Assembly (NCBI GenBank): GCA_030614005.1
Contig: JAUWKS010000065.1
Location: 1-17,818, forward strand
Reading direction: 5' to 3'
Origin: Candidatus Heimdallarchaeota archaeon
GTDB taxonomy: Archaea; Asgardarchaeota; Heimdallarchaeia; JABLTI01
DNA: 17,818 nucleotides
This document shows positions 9,114 through 9,376 of the stretch, piece by piece. Positions within the stretch are counted from its first letter, which is position 1. Each line of letters starts with the position of its first letter. The translations under genes and the position numbers were made by a program. The notes beneath the pieces were generated by a model. That model was given only the letters and a program-made list of their open reading frames with translations. It did not search any database and was not told the origin of the DNA.

Positions 9114-9200
9114 TTATTGACCACATTTTAATGCGAAAGCCAACCTTGCTTTTTGTTTTTCTTTTTTGATTTGGTTTTGTAATTGTTTTCTTTTCAACAT
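9114..9200 (-). CDS. 28-aa basic micropeptide MLKRKQLQNQIKKEKQKARLAFALKCGQ (copy 2)
   Basis: GGAGG SD (9215-9211) 10 nt before ATG 9200; TAA at 9116-9114. Paralogous to the adjacent ORF. Confidence 0.65.
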   Translation of the reverse strand: MLKRKQLQNQIKKEKQKARLAFALKCGQ

Positions 9201-9237
9201 TTTTCGGTTTCCTCCAGTTTATTTCTATTGGATTACT

Positions 9238-9327
9238 TTAACAACCAGACAAGAGAGAGACTCTTATTCTGATTTGTTCGATGTCCTTTTTGACTTGTTT
9301 TTGGATTTTTTGTTTTTTGTAGTTCAT
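9238..9327 (-). CDS. 29-aa basic micropeptide MNYKKQKIQKQVKKDIEQIRIRVSLLSGC (copy 1)
   Basis: GGAG SD (9341-9338) 10 nt before ATG 9327; TAA at 9240-9238. A TATA box lies upstream. Confidence 0.65.
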   Translation of the reverse strand: MNYKKQKIQKQVKKDIEQIRIRVSLLSGC

Positions 9328-9376
9328 TTTTTTCGTTCTCCGAGTTTTATTCGTAATTAACATACACCTTGTTTGA

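Follow-up and report, generated by a model that had tools for sequence, protein, structure and literature searches.

We describe two micro-protein genes, p1 and p2, that lie side by side on the minus strand of the window (the whole stretch of 17,818 nucleotides of Candidatus Heimdallarchaeota DNA that was analysed) and that are very probably genuine protein-coding genes. Searches of genomes and databases indicate that they belong to an undescribed family of basic one-helix proteins of 27-33 residues, found in only one genus of Heimdall-group Asgard archaea. An entire family thereby comes into view among the archaea most closely related to eukaryotes, with as many as 15 copies in a genome, a fixed two-gene architecture, clear purifying selection and a shared operator.

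Locus of the two micro-protein genes

The sequence-only reading had placed two minus-strand ORFs in the gap between an AcoX-like gene and gar1, and this layout was recovered in full: both frames are present as written, each opening with ATG, their starts lie 127 nt apart, each is preceded by a Shine-Dalgarno motif (GGAG for p1, GGAGG for p2) 10 nt 5' of its ATG, and the TATA box upstream and the pyrimidine-rich tract downstream were both located (Table 1). The spacer between p1 and p2 has the identical length in the orthologous locus of genome G010. A further in-frame ATG 5' of p1, at 9363, is missing from most relatives and probably lies upstream of the transcription start. The pyrimidine-rich tract is likely, by its sequence, a candidate archaeal terminator, and no gene follows p2 on the minus strand, the next one being the convergent AcoX-like gene. 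Across the whole window, searches with ARAGORN for tRNAs and against Rfam 15 (E<=1) gave zero matches. By our estimate, about 11% of random 29-codon frames in DNA of 33% GC are open. Since open frames of this length are common in DNA of 33.5% GC and p1 and p2 are only 32% identical, the ORFs alone prove nothing, and the case depends on homologues.

Table 1. Features of the p1/p2 locus and its flanks in the window.
Feature	Position	Strand	Basis or remark
NAD-kinase/AcoX-like gene	7836-8951	+	convergent neighbour of the micro-protein pair
Pyrimidine-rich tract with T5 run (9051-9047)	9040..9085	minus	sequence; candidate terminator
p2, beta micro-protein gene	9200-9114	minus	28 aa + TAA; read from sequence, profile match, orthologues
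p1/p2 spacer, with p2 Shine-Dalgarno GGAGG at 9215-9211	9201..9237	minus	sequence; 37 nt
p1, alpha micro-protein gene	9327-9238	minus	29 aa + TAA; read from sequence, profile match, orthologues
Predicted 5' UTR	9328..9355	minus	sequence; contains p1 GGAG
p1 Shine-Dalgarno GGAG	9341-9338	minus	
TATA box TTTATATAT	9384-9376	minus	sequence
BRE-like GTGAATCC + TATA box	9376..9394	minus	sequence; near-invariant in paralogues and orthologues; function predicted from position
Upstream promoter module GTGACCTC-N4-TGAGTCT + second TGAGT repeat	9402..9433	minus	alignment
Palindromic operator GTCAC-N5-GTGAC	9429..9443	minus	5' of promoter; conserved in paralogues and orthologues
gar1	9500-9838	minus	other flank of the pair; then SRP19

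Extent, anatomy and selection of the family

We searched the source genome (3.62 Mb in 126 contigs, 90% complete) by tblastn and with profiles run against all 138,944 of its stop-to-stop frames. This search revealed 10 family members at 7 loci, and two loci outside the window, on contigs C40 and C7, are also tandem pairs. Among the 138,944 frames, an alpha-type profile built without the window sequence recovered p1 at E 1.5e-15, and a beta-type profile built without p2 recovered p2 at E 2.1e-8 from the whole-genome frames. Further copies, which the sequence-only reading had proposed looking for, were found in all ten other genomes of the genus, at 2-15 copies each. The single genome of the sister genus holds none, and 70 further genomes of the class gave one marginal match only (E 2.5e-4). 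The family may have arisen recently, inside one genus.

Searched exhaustively with HMMER, 1.84 billion representative proteins yielded 55 matches, 54 of which are 27-58 aa long, the exception being one 126-aa repeat protein that we judged to be noise; the family motif was never found inside a larger protein in this search. Three metagenomic contigs display the same tandem or operon arrangements behind the same promoter. NCBIfam gave no match at E<=10, Pfam-A only chance-level matches (E 0.085-0.4), and PDB sequences none at E<=10 with the family profile as query, and the ESM Atlas returned only Lys-rich eukaryotic Fcf2 fragments, with scores of 0.82-0.83 that fall below the useful range. Searches of the literature on small-protein families of Asgard or Heimdall archaea gave nothing relevant and no description of this family. 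Genes of this size are at the edge of what gene callers detect or beyond it, and public databases hold only scattered, unnamed copies, some of them wrongly extended: the longer gene calls of the family (40-50 aa) begin at upstream in-frame start codons. Short-chain dehydrogenases have a first strand and glycine loop that the K-F-A-L-I-T-G-A end resembles; a link to them was dropped, because there was neither a profile match nor a split short-chain dehydrogenase nearby.

The family consensus is M-x-x-K-K-x-x-I-K-x-Q-I-K-K-D-x-E-x-x-R-x-K-F-A-L-I-T-G-X-stop, in which R20, L25 and G28 are near-invariant and the stop codon stands one residue past G28 in most copies (rarely 2-5). Members fall into an alpha type (29 aa, K-D-h-E-Q-x-R) and a beta type (28 aa, D-K-x-x-A-R), with identities of 0.58 and 0.54 within the types and 0.39 between them, and alpha comes first and beta second in 12 of the 12 pairs examined. 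The pair had been called a tandem duplication of peptides ending in Cys/Gly. Its tandem nature stands, whereas local duplication does not: by these comparisons p1 and p2 are an old arrangement of two subfamilies and no fresh local duplication. Similarly, the Gly is near-invariant but the Cys is no family trait, that of p2 being found in this genome only. The last residue differs widely between members (A, V, R, Q, C, I, K or Y); a majority of members close with T-G-A, N-G-V or T-G-R, T27 being frequent but replaced in some members by N, S, A or L, and alpha orthologues at the gar1 locus mostly end in G-C. At the C40 locus the alpha is 93% identical to p1 and the beta is of the C7 type; paralogues appear to recombine, with this locus resembling a chimera of a C121-type alpha and a C7-type beta.

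In six genomes (that of the window, G000, as well as G010, G005, G008, G003 and G006), gar1 has an alpha/beta pair with this promoter immediately downstream of it. In G002 the promoter stands at the end of a contig, G009 has the promoter with one divergent peptide, and G007 has nothing at this locus. The beta orthologues of G005, G008, G003 and G006 are 85-96% identical overall, the window beta being the most diverged copy among the beta orthologues. Between G005 and the other three (85-89% identity), pS is about 0.48 and dN/dS 0.07-0.09, and Gar1 is just 54% identical; alpha gave a dN/dS of 0.08 between G000 and G010, and Gar1 identity wherever such low values were measured is 54-88%. This comparison of orthologues, which had been advised as a check, also gave high values for some pairs (0.86 for beta between G000 and G010, and 1.1-1.4 for alpha among G003, G006 and G008) that rely on very few sites; a dN/dS that approaches or exceeds 1 is seen more typically in genes for signals, toxins or conflict than in those for binders with a housekeeping role. 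Codon analysis of 43 copies, aligned ungapped across the 26 core codons that close with the conserved Gly, counted 9923, 5618 and 11784 pairwise differences at codon positions 1, 2 and 3, with a pN of 0.33 against a pS of 0.66, and R20, L25 and G28 are encoded by codons that differ between copies. Homologues, codon-position pattern and low orthologue dN/dS thus indicate that the frames are kept by selection on peptide products, as had been supposed from the two copies.

The same data bear on whether the locus might instead be a conserved A-rich regulatory RNA or DNA whose frames are open by chance, which we regard as extremely improbable. Such an element would account for a promoter and 5' UTR more conserved than the ORFs, for a predicted transcript that folds better than shuffles (z = -2.9) and for open 29-codon frames, which are common in AT-rich DNA. 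It would not explain why differences run third > first > second across codon positions, why R, L and G persist through different codons in an ungapped core, or why dN/dS falls as low as 0.07 at a locus with no Rfam match. The syntenic Shine-Dalgarno motif, ATG and frame are kept in relatives, and 84 of the 85 family matches carry no internal stop codon, which leaves a coincidence of A-rich sequence unsupported.

Promoter, operator and putative regulon

Homology between paralogous loci begins abruptly at the GTCAC-N5-GTGAC palindrome and continues through the conserved 5' UTR. When three paralogous loci and the orthologue from G010 are aligned, the blocks of the upstream module are invariant, and the operator-to-5' UTR stretch exceeds the ORFs in conservation. 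The exact palindrome occurs 8 times in the genome, versus about 1 expected as estimated from base composition, and 6 of these 8 sit in the same promoter module. Ten occurrences of the full module were found in this genome: it precedes three alpha/beta pairs, one micro-ORF followed by a bactofilin-like gene, two more bactofilin-like genes, an ABC ATPase, an MFS exporter, one degenerate micro-ORF, and a 35-aa ORF followed by esterase/S9-like and beta-lactamase-fold hydrolases (assigned by Pfam).

A second arrangement, GGTCA-N26-TGACC (usually GGTCAC-N24-GTGACC), encloses a TATA box and occurs 9 times at exactly 36 bp, versus about 1 expected at any one spacing. It precedes two further family members, one before a GNAT fusion protein and one before a TPR-aspartyl protease and an ABC transporter, as well as PmbA/TldD peptidase genes, a 936-aa FtsX-type permease, an MFS exporter and other small ORFs; in several relatives it lies between alpha and beta, which gives beta its own promoter. 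The GTCAC-N5-GTGACC promoters, including that of the alpha/beta pair, appear to form one transcription-factor regulon, putative and defined by its motif, and small in this genome (about 10 promoters of one type and 9 of the second).

A third subtype carries TTGTAAT-N3-ATTACAA at the TATA box, and at all 8 of its loci in the genus the next gene encodes a coiled-coil/ArsR-type winged-helix protein; in this genome the peptide, of type B, lies at C54:22514-22600 and the factor at C54:22627-23694. One ancient family member is always co-transcribed with this conserved transcription factor, the peptide plus HTH operon recurring at those 8 genus loci. Of 82 genomes of the class, 62 have one copy of the factor, which occurs without a micropeptide in 13 other genera; a micro-ORF precedes it in this genus only, and the 12 loci inspected in other genera showed no micropeptide upstream of it.

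In Thermococcales, the TrmBL1 operator (TGM) is TATCAC-N5-GTGATA, and sites upstream of BRE/TATA activate whereas sites at or after the TATA box repress (PMC4706686). The operator described here is alike in its core TCAC-N5-GTGA and in its dual placement, but its flanks differ (GTCAC/GTGACC) and its targets are not those of sugar metabolism; the likeness concerns the regulator only, not the peptides. A TrmB-family regulator adjacent to an operator site was considered and rejected, none of the 11 TrmB-domain matches in the genome (9 above the Pfam cut-off) adjoining such a site and the nearest lying about 5 kb off.

Possible functions of the peptides

These associations raise the question of the role of very basic one-helix peptides alongside bactofilin-like proteins, exporters and peptidases. 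Given the family alignment, AlphaFold2 predicted one continuous helix (pLDDT 89). Computation reproduced the net charges estimated for the two peptides in the sequence-only reading, +6 for p1 and +8 for p2, with a range of +4 to +8 across the peptides analysed; their mean hydrophobicity is -0.18 to -0.40, the longest hydrophobic run is about 8 residues at most, and basic and hydrophobic side chains alternate over the last 11 residues. Judged from sequence and hydrophobicity only, no signal peptide, TM segment or amphipathic face is evident. The LSGC end of p1 is not a normal lipoprotein signal, as had been recognised before: the h-region has about 5 residues, the Cys is last, and there is no mature part. 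A complex prediction for alpha (A3) and beta (A4) scored 0.02, a value that falls outside calibration for chains of fewer than 30 residues.

Our preferred explanation, quite possible as a whole though short of probable when its mechanism is included, is that these are real micro-protein genes encoding trans-acting, cytoplasmic basic-helix binders. The alpha/beta pair makes up its own short, predicted transcription unit (operator, BRE/TATA, SD-alpha, SD-beta and T-run), which has been kept downstream of gar1 across the genus, and the putative regulon would also drive three bactofilin-like genes, an ABC ATPase, an MFS exporter and a hydrolase operon in this genome. The products, as very basic and polar single helices, would remain cytoplasmic and act in trans by binding a partner, which may be a nucleic acid, the peptides then serving as RNA chaperones or in association with the ribosome, or else a regulatory protein from their own regulon. 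Trans action is suggested because the window pair has no downstream gene and because beta has its own operator-flanked TATA box in several relatives; a cytoplasmic binder is suggested because of the predicted single helix, the charge and the lack of an evident TM segment or amphipathic face. Peptides that bind RNA or a transcription factor would add a lineage-specific regulatory layer.

Some observations run against a binder: some orthologue pairs have a dN/dS near or above 1, and the peptide gene is the first cistron in four locus types (before an HTH factor, a bactofilin-like gene, a TPR-aspartyl protease with an ABC transporter, and a GNAT gene). Such a position before unrelated genes also fits a cis-acting leader, and peptides that share their regulation with peptidases and exporters might equally be processed and exported.

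As leader ORFs, i.e., conserved-peptide uORFs or arrest peptides, the micro-ORFs would set the expression of the next cistron and the stand-alone pairs would be leader plus leader, which we consider unlikely. Regulatory leader and arrest peptides include ErmCL as well as TnaC, SpeFL and the fungal arginine attenuator peptide, the last three of which act inside the ribosome tunnel. The family is like them in its length (20-35 codons), in a C-terminal segment that is conserved and fixed to the stop (the last 10 residues are the most conserved and the distance from G28 to the stop is fixed), and in standing first, 13-41 nt before the next SD-ATG, at 4 of the 7 loci of this genome, with synteny kept in relatives. 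It is unlike them in that the N-terminal two-thirds are conserved as well and that the other 3 of the 7 loci (the pairs in the window, on C40 and on C7) are followed by no gene on their strand. Four paralogous locus types are upstream of, and co-transcribed with, a possible target, and the window pair is not. Also speaking against leaders, downstream genes have their own Shine-Dalgarno motifs at varying distances from the peptide stop, beta in many cases carries a separate promoter, orthologues do not conserve a T-run behind the peptide stop, and neither a conserved terminator/antiterminator alternative nor other conserved alternative RNA structures were seen.

Gram-positive peptide pheromone and two-peptide bacteriocin regulons are the model for a different explanation, somewhat unlikely in our estimate, in which the peptides are exported or processed precursors: the basic N-part would be a leader, the C-terminal 7-9 residues (F-A-L-I-T-G-X) a signal or bacteriocin-like moiety, and the operator would provide autoregulation. 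Promoters common to, or like, those of the peptide genes also stand before exporter genes (an ABC ATPase, the FtsX permease and two MFS genes) and peptidase genes (PmbA/TldD, S9/esterase, beta-lactamase fold), one member heads the operon with the TPR-aspartyl protease and ABC transporter, and another always adjoins the transcription factor. Conserved two-peptide units, a copy number of 2-15, genus restriction, shuffled paralogues at C40 and episodes of high dN/dS would suit such precursors too. However, there is no evident signal peptide, the chain stops at G-X with nothing left to form the core of a double-glycine leader peptide, the N-part is conserved as much as the C-part, and the factor beside the type-B peptides has no micropeptide in 13 other genera. 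The link to PmbA/TldD as dedicated processing proteases is weakened because the genome holds 17 such genes, one or two of which under the operator are weak evidence.

A more specific form, in which alpha and beta are precursors of an autoinducing peptide signal or two-peptide bacteriocin-like system of Heimdall-group Asgard archaea, appears distinctly unlikely. The operator promoters would then make up an autoinduction regulon that also switches on exporters, peptidases and bactofilin-like envelope proteins, and the rapid turnover of paralogues would reflect pherotype or immunity diversification. We know of no peptide pheromones in archaea; if the peptides are signals, peptide communication in Archaea would open up, with what would be, to our knowledge, the first ribosomal-peptide cell-cell signalling system described there. 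The peptide plus regulator cassettes of Firmicutes and phages (SHP/Rgg, PapR/PlcR and AimP/AimR) are alike in having a micro-ORF beside a transcription factor behind a palindromic operator, in narrow-lineage diversification, and in a charged N-part with a hydrophobic extreme C-terminus, many ends here being G-A or G-G-like. They differ in that the family shows no evident signal peptide, in that its factor is a winged helix with a coiled coil and not an RRNPP TPR receptor, and in that this factor exists without the peptide in other genera. One subtype adjoins this factor, which lacks TPRs, and another the TPR-aspartyl protease and ABC transporter, whereas the window pair adjoins neither and has no adjacent regulator at all.

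Modification was also among the roles raised from the sequence. Mycofactocin MftA and the PEARL scaffolds are the models for RiPP or scaffold precursors in which whatever follows the conserved Gly, one residue or more, would undergo modification and release, or Gly-Cys would be turned into a thiazole, and we hold this to be very unlikely here. The length of about 30 aa, the conserved Gly one to two residues from the C-terminus and a public subgroup ending in C-L-L-T-G-C would be in keeping with it. So would PmbA/TldD-type peptidases, which stand behind a related operator here and are of a type that processes microcin B17 (PMC5810440). Yet the terminal residue varies and its Cys is not conserved, and there is no leader plus core, the ORF stopping right after the Gly and offering no core beyond it. 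The 90%-complete genome gave 0 matches to YcaO, for which control genomes were positive, and 0 to the PqqD-type RRE, for which the control was also positive; LanB likewise gave 0 matches, but so did its positive control. In the Pfam-scanned part of the neighbours, at the 7 loci and on the three metagenomic contigs, there were no radical-SAM, LanB/C-like or other modifying genes. The scanned neighbourhoods, to which the sequence-only reading had pointed for modifying enzymes, peptidases and exporters, thus yielded none of the first, while a TPR-aspartyl protease and an ABC transporter did appear at one locus. A disulfide-linked heterodimer or a Cys modification, suggested at the same time, is weakened by the non-conserved Cys.

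Short, cationic, helical products of small tandem genes might also be membrane-active, as type I toxins, PSM-like cytolysins or cationic antimicrobial peptides, a role that the physical properties make highly improbable. The helical hydrophobic moment (0.03-0.26) is no higher than that of shuffled controls (0.20 +/- 0.10) and the mean hydrophobicity is negative, whereas lytic comparators are higher on both (0.35-0.60 and +0.1 to +0.5); a run of about 8 hydrophobic residues is also too short for a TM helix. Two-peptide leaderless bacteriocins and the staphylococcal PSM-alpha operon resemble the family in their tandem genes for 20-45-aa cationic, helical, leaderless peptides, in a regulated unit and in exporters within the regulon, but their peptides are amphipathic and hydrophobic, and those described here are neither.

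In kind the family resembles three known systems, namely the tandem leaderless peptide genes, the peptide-regulator cassettes and the Fbp proteins, but it does not appear to have the testable defining features of any of them. The last of these bear on the trans-acting binder that we prefer, FbpA/B/C of B. subtilis being Fur-regulated basic proteins of 29-59 aa that are thought to act in trans on RNA. They have no sequence relation to the family, which is archaeal, genus-restricted, much more expanded, with up to 15 copies, and marked by a fixed alpha/beta tandem and an R-x-K-F-A-L-I-T-G-X end; RNA binding by the family would be putative. Both are very small, strongly basic and soluble, with several paralogues encoded as independent genes of one regulon.

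Promoters shared by micro-protein genes and other loci

Ten promoters in the genome, including one in the window, carry a common module, GTCAC-N5-GTGACCTC-N4-TGAGTCT followed by GTGAAT-TATA, and as judged from this motif they appear to form a single regulon. The operator core of the module resembles that of TrmBL1 TGM, the Thermococcales operator TATCAC-N5-GTGATA (PMC4706686). The putative regulon comprises micro-ORFs, the genes of three bactofilin-domain proteins, of an ABC ATPase and of an MFS exporter, and a hydrolase operon. Two of these promoters precede degenerate or divergent relatives of the micro-proteins: an ORF of 35 aa whose N-part is basic and which has a W-A-L-I-A-A core but a longer tail, and an ORF of 28-32 aa that does not have the G-X end. 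Its profile may miss further members of the family.

A second class of site, GGTCA-N26-TGACC, spans exactly 36 bp, occurs nine times in the genome, mostly as GGTCAC-N24-GTGACC, and encloses a TATA-like box in every case. Downstream lie PmbA/TldD-family metallopeptidase genes, an FtsX permease, an MFS exporter and micro-protein family members, as well as unrelated small ORFs of 33-40 aa (contigs C22 and C36). Most genomes have about two PmbA/TldD genes; the 17 found here, mostly in eight adjacent pairs, look like a large expansion.

Features and their positions (C, contigs of this genome; L, loci of this and compared genomes; P, public proteins)
Feature	Position or identifier
GTCAC-N5 module	C4:62540, C7:7358, C35:1271, C40:56795, C68:48715, C68:50079, C71:21795, C71:140558, C114:32083; window 9429-9443
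Divergent relatives	C114:31997-31890 (minus strand), C4:62619-62717
GGTCA-N26-TGACC	C17:5659, C22:6194, C35:3249, C36:23038, C68:34681, C81:12435, C81:35656, C82:19306, C114:28032
PmbA/TldD genes (examples)	C81:13230-15310, C4:20098-22131, C54:4830-6873, C58:6138-8175, C1:48506-50612
3' element, downstream of beta genes at pair loci	L002:7675-7760, L011:1588-1680, L012, L015, L022
HEAT-GTPase fusion	C7:5848-7275
Coiled-coil/ArsR-type gene	C54:22627-23694 (L004:8128-9198); homologues L060-L083
Over-long public calls	P0005, P0007, P0008, P0013, P0015, P0017, P0024, P0025

Surroundings and gene calls of the micro-proteins

Many tandem alpha/beta pairs are followed by a conserved 3' element, in which CCCTGACAGG leads into a hairpin (TTCAAGA-N-TCTTGAA), CATTCTGG and a T-run, and which could represent either a terminator or a small RNA; the window's own pair locus lacks this hairpin-containing element. 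Just upstream of the C7 pair lies a 475-aa fusion of HEAT repeats with a Ras-family small GTPase.

Public calls of family members at 40-50 aa start from non-conserved, in-frame upstream start codons; these codons probably lie ahead of the transcription start, leaving the calls over-extended at the N terminus.

A conserved coiled-coil/winged-helix factor

Of 82 genomes of the class, 62 carry exactly one gene for the protein of ~356 aa that combines a coiled coil with an ArsR-type winged helix. A family micro-ORF lies in front of this gene, with a TTGTAAT-N3-ATTACAA palindrome at the TATA box, in the micro-protein genus only; in other genera, an acidic coiled-coil ORF lies upstream instead at several of the loci examined.
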